64,000 nt of DNA, from the NCBI GenBank assembly GCA_035510735.1, contig DATKGN010000004.1:243810-307809 (forward strand), written 5' to 3'. Shown here one piece after another: positions 4,484 to 48,414 of this stretch. Source of the stretch: Patescibacteria group bacterium. GTDB lineage: Bacteria; Patescibacteriota; Microgenomatia; UBA10105; UBA927. Both the position numbers and the translations under genes were made by a program. The notes below the pieces were generated by a model. It searched no databases. It was not told the DNA's origin and saw only the letters and a list, made by a program, of their open reading frames with translations. The first letter of the stretch is position 1; each line of letters begins with the position of its first letter.

Positions 4484-4516
4484 ACGGGACTTCAAGCTCT
4501 CAATAAACACCTATAT

Positions 4517-5581
4517 ATGAATGTGTGGGTCCACAGGATTTTCTTGGTGTTCTCCGTAGTTTTCCTCTCTTTCGTGATTCTTGAGGGATTATTAAGACTT
4601 TTTCATTACACGTATTATCCGTTACATATATTAATGTTAGGTATATCGGATAGCGATAAGTCCGGTGTAACGGATGCCGTGCACTCGAGTGACTGGCGTT
4701 ATTATCATACTTTTTTAGATAAATCGAATACGTATGATCCTTGGTTAATGTGGAAGCCAAATCCCCAATTTGAAATTCACGACGCTTCAGGTTCTGCCCG
4801 GAAATTCTTTAACGCAATGGGGTATACCGGCCCTGAAATTAGTCCCAATAACAGTAATCATCGTATTGTCATTATTGCGCTCGGAGATTCCAATACATTA
4901 GGTCCCGGACAATTTGATAATCAAACCGATGAAGAAGTGAGTTGGCCGGGATATTTGCGTTCATTAGTAGGTAACCGGGTGGAGGTTCTAAACGGGGGCG
5001 TATGGGGGTATTCCTCGTTTCAGATTTTCCGTCGATTTAAAAACGTTATTCCGCTTAAACCTGATTTGGTTATTATTAGCCCAAGTATGAATGATAATCA
5101 TCTTGTCTTAACCCCCGATTCATCATATAGTCTGTTTACTGTCGGGGATGACTATGCTTTGTTGCATGTGAAACTTGTTCAACTGCTACAAGCGGGCTAT
5201 GATGCAGTTGTTGCAATTATAAATAGGAATGCTTCTCCGCGCCTGCCGCGTGTTTCATATAATGAATATCAACAACTTTTGAACAATACAATTACGGTTG
5301 CTAAGAAAAATAAAATGCATGTACTTTTTATAACAAGACCTTATTGTTTTTTTACACTGCAGTCATATATTCATCAACTCGCGACCAGGTTAATGGAATA
5401 TAATGAATTTATGAGACAAAGAGCGCGTGAGGAGAATATTCCGGTTCTTGATTTTGAAAAGATATATGCAGGTAAATGTAATTTGTTCAGCGATCCGGCT
5501 CACTTTAACGAAGAGGGATATAAAAATGCTGCAAATCTGCTATATGCGGAGTTGCAGAAGTTACAATTGATTCATAACTAA
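4517..5581 (+). CDS. SGNH/GDSL-family hydrolase, N-terminal membrane anchor
   Basis: N-terminal TM helix, then the GDSL block IIALGDSNTLG, then a downstream GxND-like block (SMNDNH). Confidence 0.55.
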   Translation: MNVWVHRIFLVFSVVFLSFVILEGLLRLFHYTYYPLHILMLGISDSDKSGVTDAVHSSDWRYYHTFLDKSNTYDPWLMWKPNPQFEIHDASGSARKFFNAMGYTGPEISPNNSNHRIVIIALGDSNTLGPGQFDNQTDEEVSWPGYLRSLVGNRVEVLNGGVWGYSSFQIFRRFKNVIPLKPDLVIISPSMNDNHLVLTPDSSYSLFTVGDDYALLHVKLVQLLQAGYDAVVAIINRNASPRLPRVSYNEYQQLLNNTITVAKKNKMHVLFITRPYCFFTLQSYIHQLATRLMEYNEFMRQRAREENIPVLDFEKIYAGKCNLFSDPAHFNEEGYKNAANLLYAELQKLQLIHN

Positions 5582-5585
5582 CCTT

Positions 5586-6131
5586 ATGCCAATCTATACC
5601 CGTACCGGAGATGCAGGTACTACAGCGCTTTTTGGCGGCAAGCGGGTGTTAAAATCCGAAGCCCTTGTTGACGTCTACGGATCCGTTGACGAATTAAACA
5701 GTTGGGTTGGACTTATTACCTCACAGATGAAAGAGACTCATCTTATAAAACTTTTTTCGGAAATTCAGTCGGATTTATTTTCCGTTGGCGGGTGTCTTGC
5801 TGGATGGAAGACAGAATTGAATATGCTTGAGACGCGTGTTACACAAATGGAAGTTGAGATTGATGCAATGGAAAAAGAATTGCCGCCGCTTACAAATTTT
5901 ATTCTTCCCGGGGGATCACAGCTCGCAAGTCAGATCCACGTTGTCAGAAGTGTTTGCCGGCGCGTTGAGAGACAGGTTGTTGCACTTACCAAAACACAAA
6001 CGGTTGACCCGCGCATTATCAAATATTTAAATCGGTTATCCGACTTGTGTTTTATGCTCGCACGGTTTATAAATAAAAACGAACATGCTGAGGAAGTAGT
6101 GTGGTCTGGAATTCCAAGGCAGAAAAAATAA
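5586..6131 (+). CDS. pduO: PduO-type ATP:cob(I)alamin adenosyltransferase
   Basis: N-terminal IYTRTGDAGTTALFGG signature of PduO-type corrinoid adenosyltransferases (EC 2.5.1.17). About 180 aa. Confidence 0.8.
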   Translation: MPIYTRTGDAGTTALFGGKRVLKSEALVDVYGSVDELNSWVGLITSQMKETHLIKLFSEIQSDLFSVGGCLAGWKTELNMLETRVTQMEVEIDAMEKELPPLTNFILPGGSQLASQIHVVRSVCRRVERQVVALTKTQTVDPRIIKYLNRLSDLCFMLARFINKNEHAEEVVWSGIPRQKK

Positions 6132-6185
6132 AGTAAGGAATCGAGGAACGCTGTGTAAATCAGCGGCTGTGCCGCAACCGTGGGC

Positions 6186-6213
6186 CCCTCCTTCGCGTAA
6201 AGCTTCGGAGGGC
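6186..6213. repeat. Hairpin repeat family 2 copy (CCCTCC-TTCGCGTAAAGCTTC-GGAGGG)
   Basis: Perfect 6 bp stem with a conserved loop. Near-identical copies at 20560-20588, a variant at 30644-30700, and a reverse-orientation copy inside tsaD at 15184-15209. Confidence 0.6.
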
Positions 6214-6258
6214 AAGCCGGGAACTCCTCCTTACCTATTATCCCGAGCAGGAGTTTTT

Positions 6259-6690
6259 ATGGTTACTAAAAAGTTATTCGGCATCATACTCTTCATTTGC
6301 TGCGCATTTTTCCTTGCTTGGAGAATTACTTCATCGTTACCTCAAAGCCGTACGGTTTCTTCTGTAAGAACTACACAATCGATAAACAAAAATTCCGTTC
6401 GTGTGTCGTTGACACTCGATACAGGAGAAAAAATTGCAACCTACGACGGTATTATTGCATCCAATGCATTTGACGCGCTCATTGCCGTTACCCGGGCACA
6501 TGCAATTTCTTTAATCACGAAAAAATATGACTTCGGTGTGTTTATCCAACAAATTGGCACATTTCCAAACACAAAAGATAACGCGTGGGTTTATTATGTC
6601 AACGGAGTATCAGGTGATGTTGCCGCAGATAAAAAAACTGTTAAAAACGGCGATACCGTTCTTTGGAAGTATACAAAACCGCTGTATTAA
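6259..6690 (+). CDS. Membrane-anchored DUF4430 / transcobalamin-like C-terminal domain protein (putative corrinoid-binding)
   Basis: Start taken at ATG 6259, which has an RBS gagcaggag; the tracked ORF starts at 6169, and those upstream codons translate the hairpin repeat. TM helix then a C-terminal W.YYVNG...G......NGD.VLWKY block typical of PF14478. Confidence 0.5.
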   Translation: MVTKKLFGIILFICCAFFLAWRITSSLPQSRTVSSVRTTQSINKNSVRVSLTLDTGEKIATYDGIIASNAFDALIAVTRAHAISLITKKYDFGVFIQQIGTFPNTKDNAWVYYVNGVSGDVAADKKTVKNGDTVLWKYTKPLY

Positions 6691-6696
6691 GAAATT

Positions 6697-7206
6697 ATGG
6701 AAACGCTATTATTTATTATTCTCGGAGTGTTATCAAGAATATTGCCTCATGCTCCCAATATGACTGCGGTTGGAGGAGTTGCTTTGTTTTCAGGTGCAAA
6801 GTTCAATACGAAAAAAGCGGTCACTATTACATTACTTACCATGTTGATAAGCGATTTCATTATTGGGTTTCATTCGCTTATGTTTGCGACGTATGGAGGC
6901 ATGATTCTTGCGGTTTTTGTGGGCAAATGGATTAGTCAACGCGCAGGCGCTCGCCGAATTATTGCCGGAACGTTCTTATCATCGGCGATATTTTTTGTCA
7001 TCACCAATTTTGCCGTGTGGGCAGCGACTCCGTTGTATGCAAAAACAATGAACGGGTTTATAACGTGCTACATTATGGCGCTGCCGTTTTTTAGAAATTC
7101 CATTACAGGAGACATGTTGTATTCAATATCATTTTTTACAATCGATGCAATATTTAACTATTACAAATTCCCATTATTCCATTGGCCGAGAAAATTATTT
7201 TCATAA
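6697..7206 (+). CDS. Small polytopic membrane protein, possible ECF-type S-component-like vitamin transporter
   Basis: 169 aa with about 5 predicted TM helices and no soluble domain. Immediately follows the DUF4430 gene (7 bp gap). Function inferred from context only. Confidence 0.3.
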   Translation: METLLFIILGVLSRILPHAPNMTAVGGVALFSGAKFNTKKAVTITLLTMLISDFIIGFHSLMFATYGGMILAVFVGKWISQRAGARRIIAGTFLSSAIFFVITNFAVWAATPLYAKTMNGFITCYIMALPFFRNSITGDMLYSISFFTIDAIFNYYKFPLFHWPRKLFS

Positions 7207-7212
7207 ATTATT

Positions 7213-9486
7213 GTGCCGAAGATTCAGGAAATTAACACCAATACCGCGCAGAAGACAGACAATGCTGTTGGCACGATGGTAAACGGCGTATGGGCGGTAG
7301 TTGCTGATAGGTATGTACAGTCCCTAAATCGTGGGTTTAATCAACCATTTGGAATAAACTCGCCATTCGGAGATATTGATGATGATCAAAATATGACCGG
7401 CAAACAGCCCCAATGCATCGGGGCGTGCAGTGAATACAGTAAAAAAAGCGAGCTGGATGGATTATTAAACGTATCGGAAAAAACCGGAGGAAATGTTAAG
7501 GCTGTTGCCCTTGAGGCCGCTGAAAATGCACTCTCTTATGAGTTGGAGTTTCTCGAGAAGAGGACGTTGTCTAAAGCGAACTATGATAAAAAGGGGAAAC
7601 ACGGGATGGTAAATAAAGGCAGAGATCTGATTGATTTGGTTGAGACAACGGGGCGGCAGGATCGGTATGAGAAACTTGAAAACGATATAGATGGAAAAAG
7701 AATGGGATTTGTAATAAGTGAGGAAGATGTTGAGAAGGGGAGACACTATATTGATGTGTTTTATAATAGAAAAAATGAAGTAGAGGAATTGGCTATCCAA
7801 TTTGACGGGAGCATAGAGGATCTCCATAGGTTGAACGATAATCTTGCTCTATTAACCGGCGAAAACGCATCGATTGATGAGACTGATTTTTCAAAACCAT
7901 TATTTTCCGACAGAGAAATTTCTTTAGAAGAAATTGTTCATGCCATAGAAGAAAGCTATATAAATGAAGAAAACCGTCAGAACGCGGGCGAATATCTTAC
8001 CCGCCTGCGCCGCGATACTTCTGATTTATCGCACTTGGATGAGTATCAGGAGCGTGCGCTGAAATTAGCAAGTCAAATAGAACAGGAATTATTATCAAAA
8101 GGCAATCTCCGTGAAGGATTAGCCGCACTCGTGTGGAGTCTTGAAGCTGTTGCAAACGGGGAAGAATTCAACGTACCAGAACACTCGTACTATAAAAATA
8201 TTTCTGATACTCCTCAACAGGAGTCAATTGTGACAACTCGAACGGACGAATTAGCAGCAGAGTCGCACATTAATCACCTTATTCCAATACGACTGAATGT
8301 TACAGAGGACAATGAAAAAATTCAGGATTCTCTTGTTGTTTCTCTATTCAGACGTGTCATTGAAAGTGAGCAAAATCAAGATGACTTTCTTCGACTTAGC
8401 CGCGAACCAGCTTTTATCTTTGACAACAATGCTGATGTATCCCCGGTTTGGCGCAAATTTGCAAGCACCACACTTCATATTTCCGAACAATCTGCTCAGA
8501 AACTCGAAGATCATATCGCCGGAGTTTATAAGATTATGGGTGACCAAAAACGAATAATTGATTTTGTATCAACGACGGGGATTGCAACAGTAGGTGCACT
8601 TGCAAGCTTACACATAATAGGAAATTTAGGCGCTATACCAGTCGGGACTGCAGAGAATAAAGATCTAGATGGCGCAGAAATTAATCACGAAGAAATTTTT
8701 CCTAACCCTTTACGTATACAAAAAGAACCAGTGTTCGAATCGACAGTCACGGTGTTAGAAAAGAGCATGTATACGAAAAGTGAGAAAAATCTGATATTTT
8801 CATTATTTCTGAAGGATACCGATGGTAAAGAGGGTAAAGATATTTCTCATGAAGGAGAAGATACGGAGTTAATTTTGCTCGCAAAAATAATTGAGCTTAT
8901 GAATATGCGTGGACAGGATGTGACGACATTCAAAAAAATAATCGACTTTGTACGGATAATTGACGCGCTTCCGGTTGAAAAACAGGTAGTGGCAATTCAG
9001 AAAGAAGAGGAGCAAACTGTTACGGTTCTTCAACTCCTTTGGGAAACGGTTCAAGAGTTAATTAAGCCGGTTAATGAGTCCGAACGAACACGGGTACGAA
9101 ATGTAAAAAACGAAGGTAAATCCGAACCTAACGAAGCCGTTGAACAGGTTTCCTTTACCATTGGTATATGGATGATGCTAAAAATTCTTAATTATTACAA
9201 TGCGCTTGAATCGTTACGCTCCTTTGTTGCAAAACCTCACCAGAAGAAAAATCTGCGTGAAGCACTTGCGGAGGAACAACCTGAGGGATTGATCCAAAAA
9301 GAACCGGCCCCGTGGCTTCTCGCCGCGATTATTTTATATTTGGCGAGAATTCGGGAACAGGGCATGAGAACAAAGACAGTTCAGCAAAAAATGAAAAAGA
9401 AAAAGAATTCCGGAAGGCCTATTATGATCGCGAAAAGACCCTTGTCGGGATACTGGGGAGGCCTCATATTTGCCTTCTGTTCGTGA
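7213..9486 (+). CDS. Large acidic hypothetical protein (757 aa), coiled-coil-rich, C-terminal hydrophobic segment
   Basis: GTG start. Strongly E/D-rich, with no catalytic motif recognised. A lysine-rich stretch precedes a C-terminal hydrophobic segment. Confidence 0.45.
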   Translation: MPKIQEINTNTAQKTDNAVGTMVNGVWAVVADRYVQSLNRGFNQPFGINSPFGDIDDDQNMTGKQPQCIGACSEYSKKSELDGLLNVSEKTGGNVKAVALEAAENALSYELEFLEKRTLSKANYDKKGKHGMVNKGRDLIDLVETTGRQDRYEKLENDIDGKRMGFVISEEDVEKGRHYIDVFYNRKNEVEELAIQFDGSIEDLHRLNDNLALLTGENASIDETDFSKPLFSDREISLEEIVHAIEESYINEENRQNAGEYLTRLRRDTSDLSHLDEYQERALKLASQIEQELLSKGNLREGLAALVWSLEAVANGEEFNVPEHSYYKNISDTPQQESIVTTRTDELAAESHINHLIPIRLNVTEDNEKIQDSLVVSLFRRVIESEQNQDDFLRLSREPAFIFDNNADVSPVWRKFASTTLHISEQSAQKLEDHIAGVYKIMGDQKRIIDFVSTTGIATVGALASLHIIGNLGAIPVGTAENKDLDGAEINHEEIFPNPLRIQKEPVFESTVTVLEKSMYTKSEKNLIFSLFLKDTDGKEGKDISHEGEDTELILLAKIIELMNMRGQDVTTFKKIIDFVRIIDALPVEKQVVAIQKEEEQTVTVLQLLWETVQELIKPVNESERTRVRNVKNEGKSEPNEAVEQVSFTIGIWMMLKILNYYNALESLRSFVAKPHQKKNLREALAEEQPEGLIQKEPAPWLLAAIILYLARIREQGMRTKTVQQKMKKKKNSGRPIMIAKRPLSGYWGGLIFAFCS

Positions 9487-9942: not shown

Positions 9943-12303
9943 ATGGACCAACAAATGTCGGGTAAATTATTGGACTTTACATACCGGTTGCAGGTCTTGG
10001 GTATCAGTTTTCTATTGATTGCGGTTTTTGCCGGTGCACTTATTTTATTGGGGTATATCATTTTTTTACTCTGGAAGTACCGAAACCGCGAAGAAGAATC
10101 TCTGGAAACCGTCGTCATGCAGGTCGCGGTACCCCGCGATAATGAGATAAAAATTGATGCGGCAGAACAGATGTTTTCCAGCATCCATAGCATCGCTCAT
10201 GGAGGATTTTGGTCGTTTTTGAAACCGAACGAGCATGTATCGTTTGAAATCGTTGCGAAACCGGAGGATATACGTTTTTATATCGCGGTACCGAAAAAAT
10301 TGACAGATCTCATTGAAAAACAGATTCATGGTGCCTATCCCGGTGCGGATATTAAGGAAGTGGAGGAATATTCTATATTTTCCGAGAACGGGAAAGTCGC
10401 GTTTGCGGGACTCGTGCTCGCAAACGCTGATTATATGCCGATCCGGATTTTTCGGGATTTACCGACCGATCCATTATCATCAATCACCTCAGTTCTTGCA
10501 AAAATGCGCCCCGGGGAGGCAGCCGCAATCCAGGTACTTATCCAGCCGGCTGAGGGCAAATGGCGGGAAAATGGGAGATCCTATATTTCCAAAATAAAAA
10601 AAGACGAATCAAATCCTGAGAAAGCAAGTTTTAAAGTTGACCCGAAATCCCTTGAAGCAATCGAACAAAAAACGAGTAAGCCCGGATTTAATACGGTGAT
10701 CCGTTGTGTCGTATCATCAACAGATCAGGAAACGGCAAAGATGCATTTGGATAATCTTCTTGCCAGTTTGAGTCAGTTTTCTTCGGATCATAATCACCTG
10801 ACGAAAGTAAAATTGCCGTTTAAACAATTATTTATGGTGGACTTTGTCTATCGGTATTTTCCGATCATGAATTTTCCGTTGTTTAAACAATTCAGCGTTC
10901 TCAATAGCGATGAGCTCGCTAGTGTATTTCATTTTCCCAATAAGTCAATCGAGACGGCACACATTTTTTGGCTCAACGCAAAGAGGGCACCCGCGCCATC
11001 TCAAATTCCGATGAGCGGTATGTTTTTGGGCAGATCCCGGTATCGTGGAGTTGAGCGGCCGATTTATATTGACGAAGAAGATCGACGACGGCACATGTAC
11101 ATTATCGGAAAAACCGGTACAGGTAAATCGCAACTTCTCGAAGAGATGATTGTGCAGGATATAAAAGAAAATAAAGGAATCGCGGTTATCGATCCGCACG
11201 GAGATCTCATCGACGGCGTCATGAGCAGAATCCCGGCGTCACGGGCGGAAGACGTTATCTATTTTGACCCATCGGATTCCGATCGGCCGCTTGGGCTCAA
11301 TATGCTTGAGGCAAAGACCGAAGAACAAAAGCATTTTGTCGTTACATCAATCGTCGGGCTTATGTATAAGCTCTATGATCCTATGAAGACCGGAATCATC
11401 GGTCCCCGATTTGAACATGCCATCCGAAACGCGATGCTGACCGTCATGGTGGAACCCGGAAACACATTTGTTGAGGTCGTCCGCGTACTTACAGATGCCG
11501 CATTCGTTCAGGAATTATTGCCGAAACTGACGGATCCGATTATTCGTCGTTATTGGACGGATCAGATCGCACAGACGGCGGATTTTCATAAATCAGAGGT
11601 ATTGGATTACATCGTCTCTAAGTTCGGCCGTTTCGTTACAAATAAGCTGATGCGTAATATCATCGGCCAGTCGCAATCATCATACGATTTCCGGAAAGTG
11701 ATGGATGACGGAAAAATATTATTAGTTAATCTGGCTAAAGGGAAAATCGGAGAGGAAAACAGTAATTTTCTGGGACTTATCCTTGTCCCGCGGATTCTTA
11801 TTGCCGCAATGAGCAGACAGGAAATTCCTGAGGAAACACGGCGCGATTTTTACTTATACGTTGACGAGTTTCAAAATTTTGCAACTCCGGATTTTGCCCA
11901 GATTCTTTCCGAAGCCCGAAAATACCGGTTAAATCTTATTGTCGCGAACCAATTCATCGGTCAGATGGAAGAAGAGGTAAAAAACGCGGTATTTGGAAAC
12001 GTGGGATCAGTGATCGCATTCCGGGTCGGCGTTACTGATGCGAATTATCTTCAACATGAATTCCAACCGACGTTTAATGAAGCGGACCTCATTAATATAG
12101 ATAAATTTAATGCGTATATGAAAACAAACGTGAGAAACGAGCCGGTCAAACCGTTTAGCATGGATTTGACGAAAGATATGACAAAAATTAACGCAGAAAA
12201 AAATGAAAAGATAGCGGAAGCGATTATTCAATTATCACGATTAAAATACGGGCGTTCAAAGGAATTGGTTGAGGCTGAAATATCGCATCGCGCGAGGCTA
12301 TAA
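9943..12303 (+). CDS. TraG/VirD4/TraD-like coupling-protein-family ATPase, membrane anchored
   Basis: N-terminal TM helix. Walker A IIGKTGTGKSQL, a DPHGD box (compare DPKGD/E of T4CPs), Walker B LYVDEFQNF. 786 aa. Confidence 0.6.
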   Translation: MDQQMSGKLLDFTYRLQVLGISFLLIAVFAGALILLGYIIFLLWKYRNREEESLETVVMQVAVPRDNEIKIDAAEQMFSSIHSIAHGGFWSFLKPNEHVSFEIVAKPEDIRFYIAVPKKLTDLIEKQIHGAYPGADIKEVEEYSIFSENGKVAFAGLVLANADYMPIRIFRDLPTDPLSSITSVLAKMRPGEAAAIQVLIQPAEGKWRENGRSYISKIKKDESNPEKASFKVDPKSLEAIEQKTSKPGFNTVIRCVVSSTDQETAKMHLDNLLASLSQFSSDHNHLTKVKLPFKQLFMVDFVYRYFPIMNFPLFKQFSVLNSDELASVFHFPNKSIETAHIFWLNAKRAPAPSQIPMSGMFLGRSRYRGVERPIYIDEEDRRRHMYIIGKTGTGKSQLLEEMIVQDIKENKGIAVIDPHGDLIDGVMSRIPASRAEDVIYFDPSDSDRPLGLNMLEAKTEEQKHFVVTSIVGLMYKLYDPMKTGIIGPRFEHAIRNAMLTVMVEPGNTFVEVVRVLTDAAFVQELLPKLTDPIIRRYWTDQIAQTADFHKSEVLDYIVSKFGRFVTNKLMRNIIGQSQSSYDFRKVMDDGKILLVNLAKGKIGEENSNFLGLILVPRILIAAMSRQEIPEETRRDFYLYVDEFQNFATPDFAQILSEARKYRLNLIVANQFIGQMEEEVKNAVFGNVGSVIAFRVGVTDANYLQHEFQPTFNEADLINIDKFNAYMKTNVRNEPVKPFSMDLTKDMTKINAEKNEKIAEAIIQLSRLKYGRSKELVEAEISHRARL

Positions 12304-13839: not shown

Positions 13840-13911
13840 GGAGCCGTAGCTCAGCGGTAGAGCGCTACTCTTATAAAGTAGATGTCCTTGGTCCGAATCC
13901 AAGCGGCTCCA
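13840..13911 (+). tRNA. tRNA-Ile, anticodon UAU (TAT)
   Basis: Folded by hand. Acceptor stem GGAGCCG/CGGCTCC is a perfect 7 bp; D arm GCTC-AGCGGTA-GAGC; anticodon stem CTACT/AGTAG with loop CUUAUAA (U33, A37); variable loop 5 nt; T arm CTTGG-TCCGAAT-CCAAG; discriminator A. CCA is not encoded. Confidence 0.8.
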
Positions 13912-13912
13912 C

Positions 13913-26145: not shown

Positions 26146-27432
26146 ATGGGTGTCGAACAAAATCCAACCAGCTCTCCTAGCAAATCCGTTTCCCATTTGG
26201 TGAATGCAACTTTTTGGATGATTGAGGCTTTTGAACATCGTAAAGATATGACTCAACCGTGGGATGACCATGCGATAAATGGGTTACTTGCGGAACGCAA
26301 AATGGTTAATTTGCAAAATGCCCATAGTGCAGTCGTTATCGCACTGGAGCCGTACATTAGTGCGTTACGAAATGATGCATACGTTGTAGATATTGGCATC
26401 GGTGACGGACAATTATACCCGCTATTTTCAAGTGAAAAACATATCCGTCTTATCGGAATAGAGCCCGAACGACAAATGGTAGAACGAGGCGTGACACAGG
26501 GGAGACTGCCTAAAGATATTCAAATAGTAGATACATTGCCGCCATATGATGATATTCCTGATCGATCCATTGACCTTATGTACAGCGTTTCAACGTTTCA
26601 CGCAGTGTCGGAAACTCTTCTTCGATCAATCATCCGAAATTTAAAGCAGAAATTCCGGGGCGACGAACAATTTGTTGGAGTACAAGATATTGGAACAGGG
26701 AATACGTACCTACAGCACGTTTCCCGGGAAACGATGGACAGCATTAGTGAGTATATTTTACGTAAGTACGCGTTGTCTTCGTTTGATATCGGAAAACTAT
26801 TCGATCACGGTGGGTTGTTAGGACTGTATCACGAGCGGGTTCTTATGGACGTTTATCGTTCGATTTCGCATGCTGGACGTGTTCGAAATCAACGAATTGT
26901 TACCATCAATACTCCGAAGGAAATAGAGCAGCTTTCCTTCCACAAATCTTGGGATATGACACGGGAAGTTATCCAGGAAATCGCTCAATATAGGCATTCA
27001 AGCAATAATTTGACGAAATATCGCACCGAAGACGAAATTCGGGCGTATATCAAAACTGGGGATAAAAAGGGAGTTATGAAGATGATACATGCGCTTCACA
27101 GATATCTTAAATTGTTACACGAAATGCCTGATTCATATTTAAATAATCCCATATTTCAAAGAGCAAGGGTTGGTATTAGTGCGCTACTTGGATCTGTGAA
27201 GCAGGATATATATGAAGGCTATTTACAGTATGTTTTTAGTTCAGAGGGGTTTTCAGTTACCCCAAAACGTGCTACTACCTACCGGGAATATGAAGTACAT
27301 GATCCGGTCATATATCCTCCATATGCGTCATCCAGTATAGATGGAAGTTTAAATGGTGTTCCCTCACCGGGAAATCTGAGCATACTTATGAGTACGAGAG
27401 TTTTTGTGGCGGAAAACAAAATGCATGAATAG
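26146..27432 (+). CDS. Hypothetical protein with possible class I SAM-methyltransferase-like motif
   Basis: YVVDIGIGDGQLYPLF resembles MTase motif I and a later IGIEP resembles motif II. No DPPY/NPPY-type motif, so it is unlikely to be a DNA amino-MTase. Confidence 0.3.
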   Translation: MGVEQNPTSSPSKSVSHLVNATFWMIEAFEHRKDMTQPWDDHAINGLLAERKMVNLQNAHSAVVIALEPYISALRNDAYVVDIGIGDGQLYPLFSSEKHIRLIGIEPERQMVERGVTQGRLPKDIQIVDTLPPYDDIPDRSIDLMYSVSTFHAVSETLLRSIIRNLKQKFRGDEQFVGVQDIGTGNTYLQHVSRETMDSISEYILRKYALSSFDIGKLFDHGGLLGLYHERVLMDVYRSISHAGRVRNQRIVTINTPKEIEQLSFHKSWDMTREVIQEIAQYRHSSNNLTKYRTEDEIRAYIKTGDKKGVMKMIHALHRYLKLLHEMPDSYLNNPIFQRARVGISALLGSVKQDIYEGYLQYVFSSEGFSVTPKRATTYREYEVHDPVIYPPYASSSIDGSLNGVPSPGNLSILMSTRVFVAENKMHE

Positions 27433-27462
27433 TGGTGGCTCCGAGAACCGTTTGCCTATGAT

Positions 27463-28494
27463 TTGCGCATATACTATGCTTACGCTATGGCAGAGCAAGT
27501 CTATAACGAACCGGGAAGTTCTAAGAACGCATTTGAAATCCTCAAACCGCACATTGTCCCCGGCGTCGGACTCGCCGATCTTATCGGCGTTATGAACGCC
27601 CAACAACTTACGCATGAATTTGCGTTCAAAAACGTCGGAGATATTGCCCAGTGGCTTACGAAGAGTTGGTTTGCCAAATTGCCGGAAAAACTTGTAGGAA
27701 TTCTTGAAATACCAAACCCAGGGTTTGAAGAGCGGTCACCCCAACCTCTCATTTATGAAATTCCCGGAGAACATATTAGAGTGAACAAAAAACGGATTGT
27801 CGTTCATGGTGTATTTCATGCGCCGAATTACAATGAAGATGCTCCAAATATTGAATTCCCCGGGATTCTTAGAGATTATGCAAACTTCACATATACAGTG
27901 GGAGATAATTGGTTTTCAGAACAAGGGCTCGATAAGGTTTTTGGCATTTCCAATGTATGTACCCCGTTACATGACATGACGGGTTACGCATTGTCTAGGA
28001 GTACGCTTTTCGACAAAAGTCATCCAAGACCAAAAAACTTAATTGGAAAAGTTGTATATGGGTATAAATTCGCAAAGTATTTTGGTAACGAGGTTTATGG
28101 GGGAGCGAGTGAATTTCACGAAATGAATAAATTTGACGAAAGTAATAGATTATTTGAACGATATACGAACAATTTTCAGGATTTGCTTTTATTAAAGTAC
28201 TTATATAATAACTTTAAAATGCCGGAACCATTACAAATGGAAGTCAATATAGCATTGGATAGTCGTACGAAAGGATTGGGTGAGCAAAATAGAAACGGAA
28301 CAATTCAGAGGTCTCTTCTTCAAGCGTATGAAGTATCCGGTTTACTACCAGAAACAACGTTAGAAAAAGATCATAATTACATCCACGTACTTGTTGGAAT
28401 TACTCATGAACATCAGGTGGTGTACGCCCTTCAACATCCTGATTACGATCCGTTTCAAGCGGTTATCGCGGCTCAAGAACTTATTACGCGGTAA
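27463..28494 (+). CDS. Hypothetical protein
   Basis: 343 aa ORF with no recognisable motifs. Confidence 0.35.
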   Translation: MRIYYAYAMAEQVYNEPGSSKNAFEILKPHIVPGVGLADLIGVMNAQQLTHEFAFKNVGDIAQWLTKSWFAKLPEKLVGILEIPNPGFEERSPQPLIYEIPGEHIRVNKKRIVVHGVFHAPNYNEDAPNIEFPGILRDYANFTYTVGDNWFSEQGLDKVFGISNVCTPLHDMTGYALSRSTLFDKSHPRPKNLIGKVVYGYKFAKYFGNEVYGGASEFHEMNKFDESNRLFERYTNNFQDLLLLKYLYNNFKMPEPLQMEVNIALDSRTKGLGEQNRNGTIQRSLLQAYEVSGLLPETTLEKDHNYIHVLVGITHEHQVVYALQHPDYDPFQAVIAAQELITR

Positions 28495-28742
28495 ATCTTC
28501 AAGCAGGGAAGCGGTTTTTATATTCCGGTTTTGCGCGCGGTGCTATAATACGGGCTGGAGTTGAATATGCTACAGCAGAATACAGAGAATTTCTTCGGCT
28601 ATCTCTCAGAGACAGACGGAGAATAGTAGATTCTGAAATTAATAACGAGTGGTCACGAAAAGAAGATTCGCAATACTTCAACGGGTGGGCGGAAAATTTA
28701 CCCAATGGTCGGAATCGAATCGTTTGCGAAGAGCGGGGGATT

Positions 28743-29090
28743 ATGAACTATATGATCGGTGGCTTGATTGCTAAAGATGAATCGATTAACCATACCCCAC
28801 TATTATTGCTGGCAACACCCGAAGATTATTTTCATATCATAGATGTTGCGCTAGCAGATAAATTTATCCGTCCAAACGAGCTTGTTGATTTGCAAAAACA
28901 GGTGCGATCGGCAGAAGTCAGTGGTAATCACAATAACATACAAGCGGAATTATATAGATTACTTTCACTCGTGCGCGAACCGTATATTAATTTGCGGGTG
29001 CTTGGATATACGTACGCAGATTTAAAAATAGATTTTTCCAAACCTTTGGATGGGCCAGCCTACATGCCGATTCTGACACCGACTGTTTGA
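28743..29090 (+). CDS. Hypothetical protein
   Basis: 115 aa ORF with no motifs. Confidence 0.25.
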   Translation: MNYMIGGLIAKDESINHTPLLLLATPEDYFHIIDVALADKFIRPNELVDLQKQVRSAEVSGNHNNIQAELYRLLSLVREPYINLRVLGYTYADLKIDFSKPLDGPAYMPILTPTV

Positions 29091-29111
29091 TAATTTGGTA
29101 TACTAGCTGGC

Positions 29112-29996
29112 ATGAAACCTTTTTACCTCACAGAAATCACAACGACTGATGGATTAGTGCACCAGGGGATATTCTCTGCGCCGAAAAAACCGGGGAAACG
29201 TGCCATCCTATGGGTACACGGACTGACCGGCAGATTTTACGGCGATAAAGAGATCATGGAGGCGTTTGCGGATGAGTGCGGGAACCGTGGTTGGGGATTT
29301 GCGGCGTTTAACAACCGAGGGCATGACCACATTACCGGTATGCATAAAGTAGACCAGAAGAATCCCGGCGGATTCACGTATGCAATGGGAGGCGGGGGAT
29401 ATGAAAAATTTGAAGAATGTATTTTTGATATTCACGCGGGAGTTGATTTCCTCGTCTCCCGGGGATTCCCGGAAGTATTCGTCGTCGGACATAGCACGGG
29501 GGCGCTCAAAGTTATATATTCCGAAGGGACGAAGCCGCATGAAAATGTTGCCGGTGTTGTTTTGGCGGGAGCGATCAGCGATCGGCTAGGACCTGAAGTT
29601 GATAAAGAAAAATTATCAATTCAGATTGCCCAAATGGAAAAGTTAATTGCCGAAGGTAAAGGGGATGAACTCGTGAACGGACTCGCTTTCTTTCCCATGA
29701 CGCCGAAACGGTTCATAAGTTTATATAAAAAGGGATCCGCTGAAGATGTCGTTGATTACGGCGACGAAAACCCAAAGATGACTGCTTTTTCCAAAATCCT
29801 AAAACCAACGTTAGTTATCATTTCCGGCCAAGATGAAAATTTGGACCGACCAGCCGAGGATATACAAAAAGTGTTTGATGCAAAGACGCATGCGAAACAA
29901 TATAAAAGCATCATTATCCCGAGTGTTGACCATGGATTTACCGGGAAAGAAAAAGAAGCGGTGAATATAATTGTATCCTGGATTACGACGTTGTAG
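29112..29996 (+). CDS. Alpha/beta-hydrolase fold protein (paralogue of 44486..45379)
   Basis: Nucleophile elbow VVGHSTGAL (GxSxG) and a conserved HGLTG...FNNRGHD block. Clear paralogy to the ORF at 44486. Confidence 0.6.
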   Translation: MKPFYLTEITTTDGLVHQGIFSAPKKPGKRAILWVHGLTGRFYGDKEIMEAFADECGNRGWGFAAFNNRGHDHITGMHKVDQKNPGGFTYAMGGGGYEKFEECIFDIHAGVDFLVSRGFPEVFVVGHSTGALKVIYSEGTKPHENVAGVVLAGAISDRLGPEVDKEKLSIQIAQMEKLIAEGKGDELVNGLAFFPMTPKRFISLYKKGSAEDVVDYGDENPKMTAFSKILKPTLVIISGQDENLDRPAEDIQKVFDAKTHAKQYKSIIIPSVDHGFTGKEKEAVNIIVSWITTL

Positions 29997-30022
29997 CATC
30001 TATTTGTTATAATCCTCTTGAT

Positions 30023-30634
30023 ATGAAAAAATCGGCGTCGGTCGTTGTTTTAAAGCCCGGATACGCAAGATGGGAAGGATATGCATCACAGCGGGCGTGC
30101 GGAACGATTACTCTTATCAAGTCTCACAAAAATTGCATGGTCGATTTAGGAGTGCCGGGAGATAAAGGTAAAATTCTAAATGAATTAAGAAAGCAAAACC
30201 TCAAACCCAGAGATATCGATACCGTTATTCTCACGCATTCTGATGTTGATCACATTGGTAATATGAATCTGTTTCCGGATGCTACGTTTATCGGTGGAAA
30301 TGATGTGATACAAGGAGATTTATTTAAGGAATTTTTTAAAGAAAAATATACCGTTGATGAAAACATTTCCGTTATCCATACGCCGGGTCATGATAATCGG
30401 AGTATCACAGTCATAGTTAATGCTATAGATGGTGTAGTTGCTATAACCGGTGATTTATTTGAATACGAAAATGATTGGCGTACCGTTGATACGTCCAAAC
30501 CGTGGGAAGTCTGGAGCCAGGATACAAAACTTCAGACCGAAAGCCGCGTAAAAATTTGGAAACTTGCCGATTATATTGTGCCCGGCCATGGGAATATATT
30601 TAAAGTAGATAAATCCGTTCATTTGGATAGGTAA
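30023..30634 (+). CDS. MBL-fold metallo-hydrolase
   Basis: THSDVDHIGN is the HxHxDH motif. A downstream HTPGHD and a C-terminal PGHG also match. Confidence 0.75.
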   Translation: MKKSASVVVLKPGYARWEGYASQRACGTITLIKSHKNCMVDLGVPGDKGKILNELRKQNLKPRDIDTVILTHSDVDHIGNMNLFPDATFIGGNDVIQGDLFKEFFKEKYTVDENISVIHTPGHDNRSITVIVNAIDGVVAITGDLFEYENDWRTVDTSKPWEVWSQDTKLQTESRVKIWKLADYIVPGHGNIFKVDKSVHLDR

Positions 30635-43432: not shown

Positions 43433-44467
43433 ATGTGGTATCGTGTGATCATCATGAATGACTTCATTATTATAATAGCAATCAATCTCCTTGGATTTAC
43501 CGTATTGGTATGGATTATCAAACATGAGCTCTCAAAACTCAATAAGAGCGGCGACGAAACGCTTGTGGCATGGCTCAAGAGCATGCAGGTGACGATTGAG
43601 CATACTAATAAGACATTAAACGACGCTATGCGCGGGACCTCGGTCGAGATGACGAGAACGCTGCAGTCGAACTCCCGGCAGCTTAATGAGAGGCTCGATG
43701 AGGCTGCCCGTGTGATCGGTGCGCTCAATAAAAACGTCGGGGAAATGTCGGAGGTCGGCCGCGGCATCAGGTCACTTCAGGAATTTCTTCAGTCGCCGAA
43801 ACTCCGCGGCAACATCGGTGAACAGGTCCTTAAAGATATGATCGGACAATCATTTCCCAAACAATCATTTCATTTACAGTATGCGTTTAAATCCGGAGTC
43901 AAAGTCGATGCAGTTCTCAAAACCGACGCAGGGCTTCTCTGTATCGATTCAAAATTCCCGATGGAAAATTTTACTCTTTTGCATAACGGAGAGACCGAAG
44001 CTATCCGTAATCAGGCAAAGCGCGATTTTATCTCTGACGTAAAAAAACATGTGAGCGATATCAGTAAGAAATATATATTACCCGAAGAAGGGACGATGGA
44101 TTTTGCCCTTATGTACATTCCGTCGGAATCAGTTTACTACGAAATAGCCAATATAAATGACCTCATGGAATTTGCCAGAGGCCAGAGGGTTTATCCGGTT
44201 TCGCCCAACACGCTTTATGCGCATCTCCAAGTGTTACTCTTATCATTTCAGGGAAAAGAGCTTGAACTGAAATCAAGGGAAATCTTCCGCTTGCTTCGTG
44301 CAATACAAAAGGATTATGAGAAAGTCGAAGATAATCTGAGTGTTCTTGGTAAACATGTCGGAAATGCTTATAATACAATGGGAAATGTCACAAGCGCATT
44401 TAATCTTTTGGGACAAAAACTCACACGGACGCAAAATTTCCGTGAGTTATCCGAAGAACACGCATAA
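43433..44467 (+). CDS. rmuC: DNA recombination protein RmuC
   Basis: N-terminal TM/coiled coil and the RmuC core LQSPKLRGNIGEQVLKDMIGQ...FPMENF...FALMYIPSESVYYE. Confidence 0.8.
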   Translation: MWYRVIIMNDFIIIIAINLLGFTVLVWIIKHELSKLNKSGDETLVAWLKSMQVTIEHTNKTLNDAMRGTSVEMTRTLQSNSRQLNERLDEAARVIGALNKNVGEMSEVGRGIRSLQEFLQSPKLRGNIGEQVLKDMIGQSFPKQSFHLQYAFKSGVKVDAVLKTDAGLLCIDSKFPMENFTLLHNGETEAIRNQAKRDFISDVKKHVSDISKKYILPEEGTMDFALMYIPSESVYYEIANINDLMEFARGQRVYPVSPNTLYAHLQVLLLSFQGKELELKSREIFRLLRAIQKDYEKVEDNLSVLGKHVGNAYNTMGNVTSAFNLLGQKLTRTQNFRELSEEHA

Positions 44468-44485: not shown

Positions 44486-45379
44486 ATGTTGCAGGGACAA
44501 TTAGTTAAAACCATCACCTCTGACGGATTAGAGTTATCAGGATTTTGGATGGACCAAAAGAGTGAGGTTGCCGTTTTATATTCCCACGGAACAGCTGGGG
44601 ATTTTTATACTCACAAATTTATTGAAGTTGTGGGAGAACAATTGGCTTCCCAAAAAATTTCATTCCTCACCGCCAACAATCGCGGACATGATGTATTCGC
44701 AGATATCAGAAAGCATAACGGGGAACAAATTGATTGGGTCCAAGTTGGTGGTGCGTATGAGAAATTTGAGGATTCACTTTTTGATATAGCGGCCTGGGTC
44801 GAATTTCTATCAAAACATGGAGTAAAGAAAATTATCTTACAGGGTCACAGCCTCGGACCAAATAAAAATATTTTTTATCAATATAAAAAACAGGACCCGC
44901 GCATTATCGCCTTTATTCACCTGTCTCCGCAAAACGATGCGGGTTTGATGAGACATAAATTCGGAGAAGAAAAATATAAGTCAGTTAACCAAATGATTGC
45001 GAAAAAACTTGAGGAAGGAAAAGCCCGTGAAATGCTTCCCGATGAGTTTATCGAGGTGTGCCCGATATCCGTCGGAGCATACTCAGGATATTTTATGGAA
45101 GACGGAGTCGGCAATTTATTTCCATATCTTAGTCCCGATAATCCGAACTGGCGGGTTCTAGGGTCGATTAAAGAACCGCAGCTTCTTATATACGGAGAGA
45201 AAGATATATATATTTTGCCGTCCGTAGCGGATGCTGTGAAGATTTTCGGTAGTAAGGTTAAAAATTCCCAGAGTTTCACATCAAAAATAATAACAAACGC
45301 ATCGCATAGTTATGTGGGATACGAAAAAGAGTTAACGGACGAAATCATGAAATGGATAAAGCAAATGAAGCTGGTATGA
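44486..45379 (+). CDS. Alpha/beta-hydrolase (paralogue of 29112..29996)
   Basis: SHGTAGDFYTHKF...NNRGHD and the elbow LQGHSLGPN. Confidence 0.55.
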   Translation: MLQGQLVKTITSDGLELSGFWMDQKSEVAVLYSHGTAGDFYTHKFIEVVGEQLASQKISFLTANNRGHDVFADIRKHNGEQIDWVQVGGAYEKFEDSLFDIAAWVEFLSKHGVKKIILQGHSLGPNKNIFYQYKKQDPRIIAFIHLSPQNDAGLMRHKFGEEKYKSVNQMIAKKLEEGKAREMLPDEFIEVCPISVGAYSGYFMEDGVGNLFPYLSPDNPNWRVLGSIKEPQLLIYGEKDIYILPSVADAVKIFGSKVKNSQSFTSKIITNASHSYVGYEKELTDEIMKWIKQMKLV

Positions 45380-45957
45380 GAACGATTTTTATTATCCATG
45401 GAAGCTATGGCAACCCGCAAGAAAACTGGCTTCCCTGGTTAAAAAAAGAACTGGAAAAATTAGGGTATCGCGTATTTGTTCCAGAATTCCCTATTCCTAA
45501 AAATCAGGATTTGGCATACGGAGGTCACGATCTGTCCGCCTGGCTTGCTACTCTTAAAGAGTACGAACAATATATTGATGAACATACGATATTCGTCGCA
45601 CATAGTCGCGGGTGCATATTTATGTACCGGGTATTAGAGCAAATTAAACGTCCGGTTGCAGCAGTTTTTTTGGTTGGACCATGGATTACCTACCGATGGT
45701 ATCCGAAGGGATGGAATAAAATTGACTCTTTTCACGAGAAGCCATTTGATTGGGACAAAATAAAAAAGGGAAGCAGGTATTTTGAGATTTACCAATCAAC
45801 GAATGATGATACGCCGGTTACTGAGGGGAAAGATTTGGCTCAAAAATTAGATGCACAATTAATAATTGTTAAAGACGCTGGGCATTTTAACGTGGCATAT
45901 CATCCACGATTTAAGAAATTTGACCAATTGTTGGAAAATATAAAAAATAAATTATGA
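45352..45957 (+). CDS. YdeN/RBBP9-like serine hydrolase (PF06821-type), paralogue 1
   Basis: FIIHGSYGNPQENWLPWLKKEL and FVAHSRGC match B. subtilis YdeN YIIHGY...HWFPWLKKRL...LVAHSLGC. 201 aa. Confidence 0.7.
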   Translation: MDKANEAGMRTIFIIHGSYGNPQENWLPWLKKELEKLGYRVFVPEFPIPKNQDLAYGGHDLSAWLATLKEYEQYIDEHTIFVAHSRGCIFMYRVLEQIKRPVAAVFLVGPWITYRWYPKGWNKIDSFHEKPFDWDKIKKGSRYFEIYQSTNDDTPVTEGKDLAQKLDAQLIIVKDAGHFNVAYHPRFKKFDQLLENIKNKL

Positions 45958-47135
45958 AATTTGTATTATTTCACGGATCGTTCGGAAACCCTGAGGAAAA
46001 TTGGTTTCCTCAGCTTAAAGAACAATTGCAATTACTTGATCAGGAGGTCGTCGTCCCCACTTTCCCGTGCGATGATTGGGATGAACTGACGAAAGCGGGG
46101 CTGTCAGCGCCTCCGAAACATCAGAGTCTTGAGAATTGGTTTAAAGCATTCGACGAGATGTATAAAACGTTTGATAAAAATGAGAAACTTTGTTTTATCG
46201 GCCACTCGCTGGGGCCGCTGTTTATACTCCATGTGGTTGAGCGATACAATATCCAACTGGATTCTGCTATTTTTATCAGCCCGTTTATGTCCAAGCTCAA
46301 CAAACCCTGGCAATTTGACCATGTAAACGCGCCGTTTTACAAAACGGATTTTGATTATGAAAAACTCCGCAAACGTATTCCTGTTTCCTATGTGTTGTAT
46401 TCAGACAGCGATCCCTATGTTGAACGGGAGCAGCCCGTCAAATTTGCAGAACCATTACATAGTTCAATAATTCTTGTTAAGAAGGCGGGTCATTTGAATG
46501 CCGCCGTGAATTTAAACGAATTTCCCTTAGTATATGAGTTATGTAAATCTAGGTTGGATTTAAGCTTATACCAGCACTATATCGATCACCGACGGCAGTT
46601 GTTTGCGACGAATTATCTCAAAGGACGCCATGAAGAGGTTGTGTATCTCAAGCCGGAAGAAATATTTGATGAGGGATTGTTTCATTTTCGGAATTTGAGT
46701 AAGAAAGGATTCTGCACGTTTTTTACCGGTCTGTCACTTTGGGAAACACAGAGCGAATATTATAAAGAAGCGAGAAAAGCAGCCCTAAGAGTCAAAGATT
46801 TTACCCGCGTGTTTGTTGTTCAGGATTTGGACGATTTGAAACGTACAATATTATTACAACAAATCGATTTGGATTTGAAGGCCGGAATTAAAATATTTCT
46901 TGTCATGATGCAGGATATTGAAAAAGAGGTACGTGAGCTCGATTTTGGGATTTGGGATAATGATTATTTGTGTGTTGTGCGGTTTAATAAGGAAAAACAG
47001 GTTGAAGTGAAGTTAAGTAGTAGAAAACAGGATATTCTTGAAGCCGAAAAGTGGGAAAAAATTATTTTGGCAAAAGCGGAAAAAATTACGGGTATTGATA
47101 ACGACATCAATACGTTTATAAAAAAACACTCATGA
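45954..47135 (+). CDS. YdeN/RBBP9-like serine hydrolase with about 190 aa C-terminal extension, paralogue 2
   Basis: VLFHGSFGNPEENWFPQLKEQL and FIGHSLGP. The extra C-terminal domain is of unknown function. Start overlaps the previous stop. Confidence 0.6.
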   Translation: MKFVLFHGSFGNPEENWFPQLKEQLQLLDQEVVVPTFPCDDWDELTKAGLSAPPKHQSLENWFKAFDEMYKTFDKNEKLCFIGHSLGPLFILHVVERYNIQLDSAIFISPFMSKLNKPWQFDHVNAPFYKTDFDYEKLRKRIPVSYVLYSDSDPYVEREQPVKFAEPLHSSIILVKKAGHLNAAVNLNEFPLVYELCKSRLDLSLYQHYIDHRRQLFATNYLKGRHEEVVYLKPEEIFDEGLFHFRNLSKKGFCTFFTGLSLWETQSEYYKEARKAALRVKDFTRVFVVQDLDDLKRTILLQQIDLDLKAGIKIFLVMMQDIEKEVRELDFGIWDNDYLCVVRFNKEKQVEVKLSSRKQDILEAEKWEKIILAKAEKITGIDNDINTFIKKHS

Positions 47136-47761
47136 CATTTGTTTTTATTCATGCATCATTCGGATCGCCAGAAGAGGCGTGGTTTCCATGGCTTAAGAAA
47201 GAATTAGAAGGGTTAGGTCATGAAGTATTTGCACCCCGATTACCGACAGATGAGTGGTCGAAAGTCACAAAATTACCCGTTGCAGAATACCGATCGAGTC
47301 AAAATCTGACGGTATGGACAGAGTCATTCGAAAAACTTCTACCGAAAATACAAAATCACAAAGAACTCTGTTTTGTGGGTCATTCACTTGGTCCGATGTT
47401 TATCCTTTTTATGGTTGAAAAGTGCGGATTATACGCAAAAAATGCGTATTTTATTGCTCCGTTTTTCCATCCGGCAACTGAGGAAGAGTTAAAGGATAAA
47501 TCGGCAGCCCTGATCCATAAAGCGAATATAACGTTTTATTATCATGATTTCGATTTTGCACGTCTTCGATCGTTAATCCCTCAATCAACGGTTATTTATA
47601 GTGACGATGATCCGAATGTCCACGAGTGGGAGGCGCTCGAGTTCGCAGAAAAATTAGGGAGTAAAACGATTAAACTGACCGGATTGGGACATATGGGAAT
47701 AGAATCACATCTTTTCAAGTTTCCGCAACTCCTTAATGCAATAAAACGGGACAATCCGTAA
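47132..47761 (+). CDS. YdeN/RBBP9-like serine hydrolase, paralogue 3
   Basis: VFIHASFGSPEEAWFPWLKKEL and FVGHSLGP. 4 bp overlap with the upstream gene. Confidence 0.7.
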   Translation: MTFVFIHASFGSPEEAWFPWLKKELEGLGHEVFAPRLPTDEWSKVTKLPVAEYRSSQNLTVWTESFEKLLPKIQNHKELCFVGHSLGPMFILFMVEKCGLYAKNAYFIAPFFHPATEEELKDKSAALIHKANITFYYHDFDFARLRSLIPQSTVIYSDDDPNVHEWEALEFAEKLGSKTIKLTGLGHMGIESHLFKFPQLLNAIKRDNP

Positions 47762-47775
47762 TATAATAACCCCAC

Positions 47776-48414
47776 ATGACATTCTTATTCATTCACGGTA
47801 CTTTTGAATCACCAAATAATGCTTGGTTTCCGTGGTTGAAAAACGAGTTACAAAAGATGGGCCATATTGTGATAGCGCCGCAATTTCCGGTGGACAAATG
47901 GTCGGAGATATCCAAGCAGCCTGTGTCCGAATACGCTCCTACGCAACAATTAGGTGCATGGTTTGATGTTTTCGAAAAGATTCGTAACACTATTAAACCG
48001 GATACAAAATTATGTATTGTTGCCCATTCATTAGGCCCCGTGTTTACGTTACTCGTCGCTCAAAAATATTCTATGCAATTAGCGAATGCATATTTTATTG
48101 CGCCGTTTTTTGAGGTGTACGGGAAATCCGACTATATTGAAAAGGCAAACGATTCGTTTTATCATCAACAATTCGATTTTCCCAAACTACGGAGGCTTAT
48201 TCCAAATTCAACTGTTCTGTACAGTGATAACGATCCATATATTGATAAACTTAAATCTGTAGAATTTCGGGAAAAATTGAAGAGCAAGATTGTAAGGTTA
48301 CACGGGTTAGGTCATATGGGATCGGAATCGGGCATGAAGGACTTTCCCCAATTACTCGATCTGATCAAACAAGATAGTAATATAATAACCCGACATGACA
48401 AAAGTATCCGTTGA
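47776..48414 (+). CDS. YdeN/RBBP9-like serine hydrolase, paralogue 4
   Basis: LFIHGTFESPNNAWFPWLKNEL and IVAHSLGP. Confidence 0.7.
   Translation: MTFLFIHGTFESPNNAWFPWLKNELQKMGHIVIAPQFPVDKWSEISKQPVSEYAPTQQLGAWFDVFEKIRNTIKPDTKLCIVAHSLGPVFTLLVAQKYSMQLANAYFIAPFFEVYGKSDYIEKANDSFYHQQFDFPKLRRLIPNSTVLYSDNDPYIDKLKSVEFREKLKSKIVRLHGLGHMGSESGMKDFPQLLDLIKQDSNIITRHDKSIR

Follow-up and report, generated by a model that had tools for sequence, protein, structure and literature searches.

Five hydrolase genes stand in a row on the plus strand (positions 44486-48414) of the 64 kb of DNA analysed here, hereafter the window, which comes from a Microgenomates-group bacterium of the Patescibacteria, or candidate phyla radiation (CPR). 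The row consists of an alpha/beta hydrolase gene, G0, followed by four serine hydrolase genes, P1 to P4, and fills a slot between rmuC and the gene of a UvrD-type helicase. All five open reading frames (ORFs) were confirmed at these coordinates (Table 1). In profile hidden Markov model searches, P1-P4 matched PF06821 (Ser_hydrolase) with 66.4, 52.8, 45.7, and 63.6 bits, respectively. All four lie above the gathering score of 22 bits, in agreement with an earlier reading made from the sequence alone (the sequence-only reading), which had placed them in the YdeN/RBBP9 serine-hydrolase family. G0 matched PF08538 (DUF1749; gathering score 24 bits) with 54.4 bits over profile positions 86-295 of 299. 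The paralogue that the same reading had seen at 29112 belongs to PF08538 as well (53.1 bits) and shares 28% identity with G0 (E = 2e-30). None of the five proteins matched a named NCBIfam family, and a profile built from the four PF06821 copies found no further Ser_hydrolase in the window.

Table 1. Coordinates of the hydrolase genes, their domains, the direct repeats, and related or flanking genes in the window.
Feature	Position	Strand	Remarks
G0 distant paralogue (DUF1749)	29112..29996	+	PF08538; followed by a metallo-beta-lactamase-fold gene
rmuC	43433..44467	+	left flank of the slot; PF02646 RmuC, E = 1.6e-50; 18-nt gap to G0
G0, DUF1749-family alpha/beta hydrolase, 297 aa, GHSLG nucleophile motif	44486..45379	+	PF08538
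P1, PF06821 serine hydrolase, 193 aa	45376..45957	+	alternative upstream ATG at 45352
P2, 393-aa fusion protein	45954..47135	+	PF06821 domain and C-terminal domain
P2 N-terminal domain, PF06821 serine hydrolase, residues 1-200	45954..46553	+	
P2 inter-domain linker, residues 201-227	46554..46634	+	conserved sequence, low-confidence model
P2 C-terminal domain, best read as divergent DUF6879; PLD/Nuc-like fold, signature DFGxWD	46635..47135 (incl. stop codon)	+	
P3, PF06821 serine hydrolase, 209 aa	47132..47761	+	HA replaces HG oxyanion motif
Direct repeat copy 1, TAATATAATAACCCCACATGACA	47759..47781	+	P3 stop to P4 start
P4, PF06821 serine hydrolase, 212 aa, ~11-aa tail	47776..48414	+	
Direct repeat copy 2, TAATATAATAACCCGACATGACA	48378..48400	+	within the P4 3' end; ends in the helicase start
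UvrD-type helicase with C-terminal PD-(D/E)XK nuclease (AddA-like), 1034 aa	48395..51499	+	PF00580, PF13361, PF12705; right flank of the slot

The catalytic residues of the four PF06821 proteins are intact. P1-P4 all have the Ser nucleophile (in A/G-H-S-x-G), the Asp (in DxDP), and the His (in GH), which follow each other in the canonical order and align with the triads of YdeN and RBBP9; across the family, the Ser-Asp-His triad is invariant in 81 of the 81 members aligned. P4 could be matched at the sequence level to YdeN (PDB 1UXO, E = 1e-6) and to RBBP9 (E = 8e-4) with the triad in register. Because the triad is kept, all four genes probably encode active enzymes, and the nucleophile is present in every copy rather than lost from most of them. 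The HG(S/T)xGxPxxxW(F/L)PWLK...(A/G)HS(L/R)G signature quoted in the sequence-only reading holds approximately, with departures in P3 (HA), P4 (HGTFE), and P2 (FPQLK). The HA that replaces the HG oxyanion motif of P3 is the sole change of this kind in its 13-member clade and among the 81 family members, and P3 may be a weakened or altered enzyme. P2-P4 share an insertion of ~11 residues after strand 2, which is missing in P1 and in the outgroups. P1-P4 and G0 start straight at the first beta-strand (MxFxxxHG) without a leader and are therefore predicted to be cytoplasmic. The structure prediction that had been proposed as a check was run for P2, whose N-terminal domain was modelled with a predicted local distance difference test (pLDDT) score of ~90. 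Its best structural matches are YdeN (1UXO, template modelling (TM) score 0.84) and RBBP9 (TM 0.78-0.82), which confirms a YdeN/RBBP9-like fold; for P1, P3, and P4 this fold is inferred by alignment.

The genes are tightly packed. The best-supported start of P1 is the ATG at 45376 (MRTIFIIHG), which matches the N-terminus of the orthologues, and with this start G0 and P1 are joined by an ATGA overlap. The same overlap is found at the P1/P2 and P2/P3 junctions. P3 and P4 do not overlap and are separated by a 14-nt spacer, so an overlap of start and stop does not hold at every junction; the 3' end of P4, in turn, overlaps the helicase start by 20 nt. The co-directional string thus runs rmuC-G0-P1-P2-P3-P4-helicase, past the array on both sides. 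Of the earlier statement that each start overlaps the preceding stop in a single operon, the three ATGA junctions and the tight packing stand, whereas the P3/P4 gap and a string longer than the array do not fit it. The array also differs from its surroundings in base composition, with a GC content of 0.395 versus 0.437 and 0.451 in the flanking genes, the second lowest among 301 windows of the same length.

The four PF06821 genes are related to each other only distantly. P3 and P4 share 53.5% protein identity, the N-terminal domain of P2 shares 39.5% with each of P3 and P4, and P1 shares 30-34% with the others. Identities of "100%" between copies at the DNA level were discarded because free end gaps had produced them. 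In a neighbour-joining tree, each copy of the window falls in its own clade together with closer orthologues from other genomes (49-68% identity). P1 groups with genes of loci L025, L027, and L034 (49-52%), P3 with the proteins P0128, P0126, and P0127 (59-64%), and P4 with P0121-P0123 (60-65%), the P3 and P4 clades being sisters and P1 the outlier. Fusion proteins resembling P2 reach up to 82% identity, with hundreds of clusters at 45-70%. Judged from these sequence comparisons, P1-P4 are four long-separated orthologous lineages, namely a P1 type, a P2 type defined by the fusion described below, a P3 type, and a P4 type. The pairwise alignments and tree proposed in the sequence-only reading thus came out in favour of ancient divergence over recent duplication.

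The same slot was recognized in relatives. We examined 58 loci from species-representative genomes, 80 metagenome loci, and eight loci obtained by exact look-up, and found a recurring frame of the form TatD-MetRS-small membrane protein-RmuC-[slot]-helicase-FemAB-FemAB. The helicase is kept as the right border of the slot in relatives, and rmuC is kept as the left border in L028, L033, L034, L041, L061, L062, L065, L066, L072, and L094. What lies between them varies. The window holds G0, P1, P2, P3, and P4; L028, L033, L035, and L094 hold P2 only; L034 holds P1 and P2; L066 and L072 hold P2 with a P3-type gene; L065 holds G0 with a P1-type and a P3-type gene; and L061 and L062 hold a P4-type gene with G0 on the opposite strand. 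G0 orthologues also occupy the slot in L025, L026, and L027. L041 and L014 combine P2 with unrelated cargo, a TraG/VirD4-like coupling ATPase and a major facilitator superfamily (MFS) transporter (L041 6544-9993, L014 7781-9496), indicating that the slot takes mobile or accessory cargo. The window carries the fullest set, and at most three Ser_hydrolase genes were found at any of the ~140 other loci. A four-gene array in L075 and a three-gene array in L072 fell to three and two genes, respectively, after split ORFs had been merged. Copy number at the locus, another check that had been suggested, therefore varies between one and three hydrolase genes in relatives, in differing subsets. Because relatives keep different subsets in the same slot, the comparison of gene content shows that the array was built and trimmed by gene gain and loss and not by recent amplification.

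One such gain appears to have left a scar. A 23-mer, TAATATAATAACCC[C/G]ACATGACA, occurs in exactly two copies in the window, against 0.00 expected, and the two copies bracket P4. It is missing from all other loci examined, save two re-assemblies of the same genome. In L066, the P3-type gene ends with a homologous sequence (...GACAATCCGTAATATAATA...) and runs directly into the helicase, which identifies the P3-helicase junction as the older one. The sequence scar itself is plain, and by the mechanism that it suggests P4 would be a cassette that inserted where P3 once met the helicase gene, duplicating the 23 bp. The extra C-terminal tail of P4, NIITRHDKSIR, can be read directly as the duplicated junction in another reading frame. 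Each repeat copy contains TATAAT 8 nt upstream of an ATG and ends at a start codon, and the 23-mer may also be an internal promoter, start, or leaderless-start element.

P2 stands apart from the other copies by its extra C-terminal domain of roughly 190 aa, which had already been noticed from the sequence and which, linker included, covers residues ~201-393. The C-terminal domain of the window protein matched PF21806 (DUF6879), an uncharacterised bacterial domain, with 17.3 bits (E = 3e-3), below the cutoff of 23.9 bits. Among the orthologous C-terminal domains, 13 of 18 matched PF21806 at E ≤ 0.01 (best E = 4.5e-8), and the homologue P0021 scored 30.1 bits. We read the domain as a divergent DUF6879 branch. 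Its AlphaFold model was confident (pLDDT 82.8, predicted TM score (pTM) 0.82), and a Foldseek search with it returned 47 PDB matches at E ≤ 1e-3, of which all those shown have the phospholipase D (PLD) fold. They include PLD, NucT, Nuc, PLD3, phosphatidylserine synthase, Zucchini, TrmB, and FAM83, with E-values from 3e-5 to 1e-3 and a probability of 1.0. The match to Nuc (1BYR) had a TM score of 0.73 and a root-mean-square deviation of 3.8, and a structure search of BFVD yielded PLD-like matches too. No relative of the domain in the PDB was found at the sequence level, where a profile search returned noise only (E ≥ 0.04).

The C-terminal domain shares its fold with the catalytic members of the PLD/Nuc superfamily (Nuc 1BYR, NucT 6EHI, PLD3, and Zucchini) at a sequence identity of 9-14%, but it lacks their conserved His and Lys. 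The HKD motif, HxK(x)4D(x)6GSxN, is missing from the P2 orthologues, in which no Lys is invariant and the sole invariant His lies in the linker. The domain is therefore not to be filed as an HKD enzyme. The conserved core, as seen in 49 proteins of other architectures, comprises G52, T55, W63, Y69, R74, R85, D107, D130-F-G-x-W-D135, and C140, again without His or Lys. Where an HxKxxxxD strand-turn-strand would be expected, the domain appears to read DFGIWDN(D/E), as mapped by spacing and strand position. The conserved residues would line a polar pocket, consistent with ligand binding. By its lack of His and Lys, the domain resembles two non-catalytic members of the fold, the sugar-binding domain of TrmB (2F5T) and the pseudo-PLD domain of FAM83 (5QHM/4URJ). 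In fusion variants of ~560 aa (P0007, P0008, P0011, P0013, and P0021), the hydrolase is followed by the complete PLD-fold domain twice in tandem. These variants mimic the bilobed PLD enzymes, and this implies that the single-domain form dimerises.

An exhaustive search showed that the domain also exists on its own and in unrelated architectures, namely with a class-I methyltransferase, behind a TIR domain, between a kinase and a methyltransferase, and between a TIR-like domain and a methyltransferase. A cluster look-up yielded no taxonomic assignment for the proteins of these architectures. P0186, which seemed to be a fusion in reversed order (domain, then hydrolase), was dropped, as the hydrolase profile matched only in its last 80 residues. 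In a distant organism, locus L067 (ENA ERZ21862435 contig_1, 2.6 Mb, positions 1015-7905) holds a 636-aa PNP_UDP_1-domain protein, a methyltransferase, and a standalone PF06821 protein in a tight row, followed by a transposase fragment and then by P0210, a TIR-like/DUF6879-like/methyltransferase protein. This locus, a single case, may be the unfused counterpart of the pairing of hydrolase and DUF6879.

The fusion of hydrolase and DUF6879-like domain is widespread. It forms 394 database clusters of proteins typically 390-400 aa long in which both halves are strongly conserved, and many Microgenomates share it at 45-82% identity. It was found in metagenome-assembled genomes (MAGs) of Gottesman-, Roizman-, Woese-, and Dojkabacteria as well as in MAGs labelled as DPANN archaea. 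Among the latter are L015, L011, L009, L010, L045, and L058, labelled Aenigmatarchaeota, Woesearchaeota, or Micrarchaeota, in which the fusion has ~57% identity. At L015 (JACQIB010000005.1), an archaeal Hel308-type helicase (PF21280) is encoded no more than 8 kb from the fusion gene (9986-11170), and for this reason at least some archaeal copies look genuine, which suggests that the fusion is truly shared between CPR and DPANN. No constant partner gene emerged when all neighbours were clustered, as every neighbour family was confined to 7 or fewer of the 58 genome loci, and at L003 (70% identity) the fusion lies amid wholly unrelated genes. The fusion therefore acts as a self-contained unit, whose position beside DNA-repair genes reflects lineage-specific synteny. 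The linker of P2 contains D, Y, Q, Y, H, R, and Y residues that are invariant across 20 orthologues, and it was modelled at a pLDDT of only 36-45 despite this conservation. Since the linker is conserved yet has no confident structure, it may form an interface or touch the substrate. The full-length model (pTM 0.57) shows high confidence for each domain and low confidence for the linker, which suggests two domains joined by a flexible tether.

As to what the hydrolases do, the only characterised relatives are RBBP9 and ML-005. RBBP9 is an aminopeptidase that removes aromatic N-terminal residues (PMC8866121), and ML-005, a YdeN-like protein derived from metaproteomics, is a short-chain (C4) esterase with a Ser/Asp/His triad (PMC6119806). 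By analogy with these two enzymes, the likeliest activities of P1-P4 would be the hydrolysis of small soluble esters or the trimming of peptides at the N-terminus. ML-005 belongs to the same family and offers a plausible activity model for P1-P4; it is a single-domain, single-gene case with 28% identity to YdeN, and it is likened to P1-P4 by family only. YdeN of Bacillus subtilis and human RBBP9 (PDB 2QS9/7OEX) are, like P1-P4, lid-less alpha/beta hydrolases of ~190 aa with the same order of the triad. They share only ~20% identity with P1-P4, and they differ in that P2-P4 add the insertion and P2 adds the C-terminal domain. The residue aligned with Glu108 of RBBP9, which anchors the amine of the substrate, is Glu in the P4 clade, mostly Asp in the P2 clade, mixed in the P3 clade, and aromatic in the P1 clade, so that only the P4 and P2 clades match it with an acid. 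The clade-specific residue at this position, together with the insertion, plausibly fits diversified specificities. Each clade would then have a specificity of its own, and the array would serve a metabolically reduced cell as a scavenging or deacylating battery. In P2, the PLD-fold domain, devoid of the HKD His and Lys, would keep the polar pocket (T, W, Y, R, R, D, and DFGxWD) and would probably dimerise, bind a ligand, and target or regulate the hydrolase rather than act as a phosphodiesterase.

For DUF1749, the one characterised member of which we are aware is the fungal siderophore esterase SidJ. G0 and the 29112 paralogue score above the cutoff of this family and carry the GHSxG motif, with a match that leaves out the N-terminal third of the profile. 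In contrast to the fungal setting, G0 sits in a bacterial CPR context and has no siderophore-related neighbour. Literature searches for DUF6879, DUF1749, and PF06821 returned nothing relevant, the matches for PF06821 being to a drug code.

Taken together, the account that we consider the likelier one, with some reserve, is that of five cytoplasmic hydrolases of old lineages, gathered in a variable slot and differing in specificity, with a regulatory module in P2. Several observations weigh against parts of this account. Scans for sigma-70 consensus promoters (26 versus 20.5±4.3 in shuffled sequence) and for intrinsic terminators (12 versus 9.7±3.1) performed no better than chance, and the operon structure is therefore read from gene spacing alone. 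The change from HG to HA could lower the activity of P3. The equivalence to Glu108 of RBBP9 comes from a low-scoring alignment, and the activity analogy draws on two distant relatives with ~20-30% identity. The conserved polar residues of the C-terminal domain, together with the linker, could form a second, unrecognised catalytic site rather than a mere binding site. As for the history of the slot, it may have held a full ancestral array that suffered losses, or it may have been filled by stepwise gains.

Other explanations for the origin of the array find little room. The sequence-only reading had seen in it a four-fold local expansion, and a recent, lineage-specific tandem amplification of one YdeN-like gene would indeed be expected to place four genes of one family side by side on the same strand. 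It could also draw on the sister position of the P3 and P4 clades and on the identity of these two genes, the closest paralogues within the genome. However, the copies are only 30-53% identical, closer orthologues of each type exist in other genomes and occupy the same slot there, and P4 is bracketed by the 23-bp repeat of a cassette scar rather than by a long duplicated segment. Since each copy forms a clade with orthologues from other genomes, recent amplification is rejected as very improbable. An assembly duplication artefact, which the sequence-only reading had listed among the outcomes that would refute its view, or a set of decaying pseudogenes has an even smaller chance, close to nil. 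The repetitive look of the locus is its sole recommendation, whereas the arrangement is identical in two independent assemblies (ENA ERZ27248486 and Logan SRR8676595), the copies have diverged strongly, no reading frame is broken, and the triads do not vary.

Two other functions were weighed against a scavenging role. The array could belong to an anti-phage defence or conflict island, with effector-like hydrolases in a hotspot and the PLD-fold domain as a sensor. This would agree with the variable content between conserved flanks and the lower GC, with the fusion of DUF6879-like domains elsewhere to TIR, Ser/Thr kinase, and methyltransferase domains, in partners that match the TIR, kinase, and MADS models of PADLOC, and with L067, where a standalone Ser_hydrolase lies near the PNP_UDP_1 protein, the methyltransferase, and the three-domain protein. 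However, L067 is one locus, none of G0 and P1-P4 matches a PADLOC-DB 2.0 model, and the matches of rmuC and the helicase (UvrD) to defence models are generic domain matches. Moreover, the fusion is conserved across many Microgenomates, behaves as a stable single-copy gene, and has no recurring neighbour. We regard a defence island as unlikely, and the detoxification or defence role put forward from the sequence found no direct support. The hydrolases might instead assist RmuC and the AddA-like helicase-nuclease in DNA repair, for example by clearing protein or ester adducts from DNA ends while the Nuc-like domain binds nucleic acid. In line with this, the genes form a co-directional, overlapping string with rmuC and the helicase, the synteny is repeated in several relatives, and the C-terminal domain shares the fold of the nucleases Nuc, NucT, PLD3, and Zucchini. 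Yet the rmuC and helicase flanks are present in only ~6 of the 58 genome loci, L003 departs from them altogether, the slot of L041 and L014 holds unrelated cargo, and the HKD catalytic residues are missing. Because the synteny is confined to a subclade, we consider a repair role somewhat less likely still than a defence island. A further view, no more probable than the defence island, takes the P2 fusion as a widespread, unrecognised enzyme of CPR and DPANN whose degenerate PLD-fold domain would bind a phosphorylated or nucleotide-derived ligand and gate or target the hydrolase. The same sensor, wired in other prokaryotes to TIR, protein-kinase, and methyltransferase domains, would represent a new module by which signalling or conflict systems sense ligands; the slot would be a defence-like hotspot.

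Away from the array, the window holds a few other features. A match to the cobalamin riboswitch at 6120-6246 (34.6 bits versus an Rfam gathering score of 31.5) overlaps the start of the ORF at 6169-6690; such a riboswitch is unusual for a CPR genome with little cofactor metabolism. The sole tRNA in the 64 kb (13840-13912) is a tRNA-Ile with a TAT anticodon, an uncommon way of decoding AUA in bacteria, most of which use a lysidine-modified CAU tRNA. A plus-strand cluster at 26146-30634 comprises a 428-aa methyltransferase-domain protein, a 343-aa ORF with no Pfam match, the DUF1749 gene at 29112, and the metallo-beta-lactamase-fold protein.

The hydrolases themselves are ordinary members of known, poorly characterised families, and the notable points of the locus are the fusion and the scar. 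The 23-bp scar provides a clear example of the addition of a cassette to a variable slot in a streamlined genome. The fusion defines a family that our literature searches had not met, which joins a YdeN-like hydrolase to a non-HKD PLD-fold DUF6879 domain in many Microgenomates and, apparently, in DPANN archaea. The TIR, kinase, and methyltransferase partners of its C-terminal module offer a concrete starting point for working out what DUF6879 does. Given how small CPR genomes are, the retention of five adjacent hydrolases suggests that they are of value to an episymbiotic lifestyle, for example in the processing of scavenged esters or peptides.

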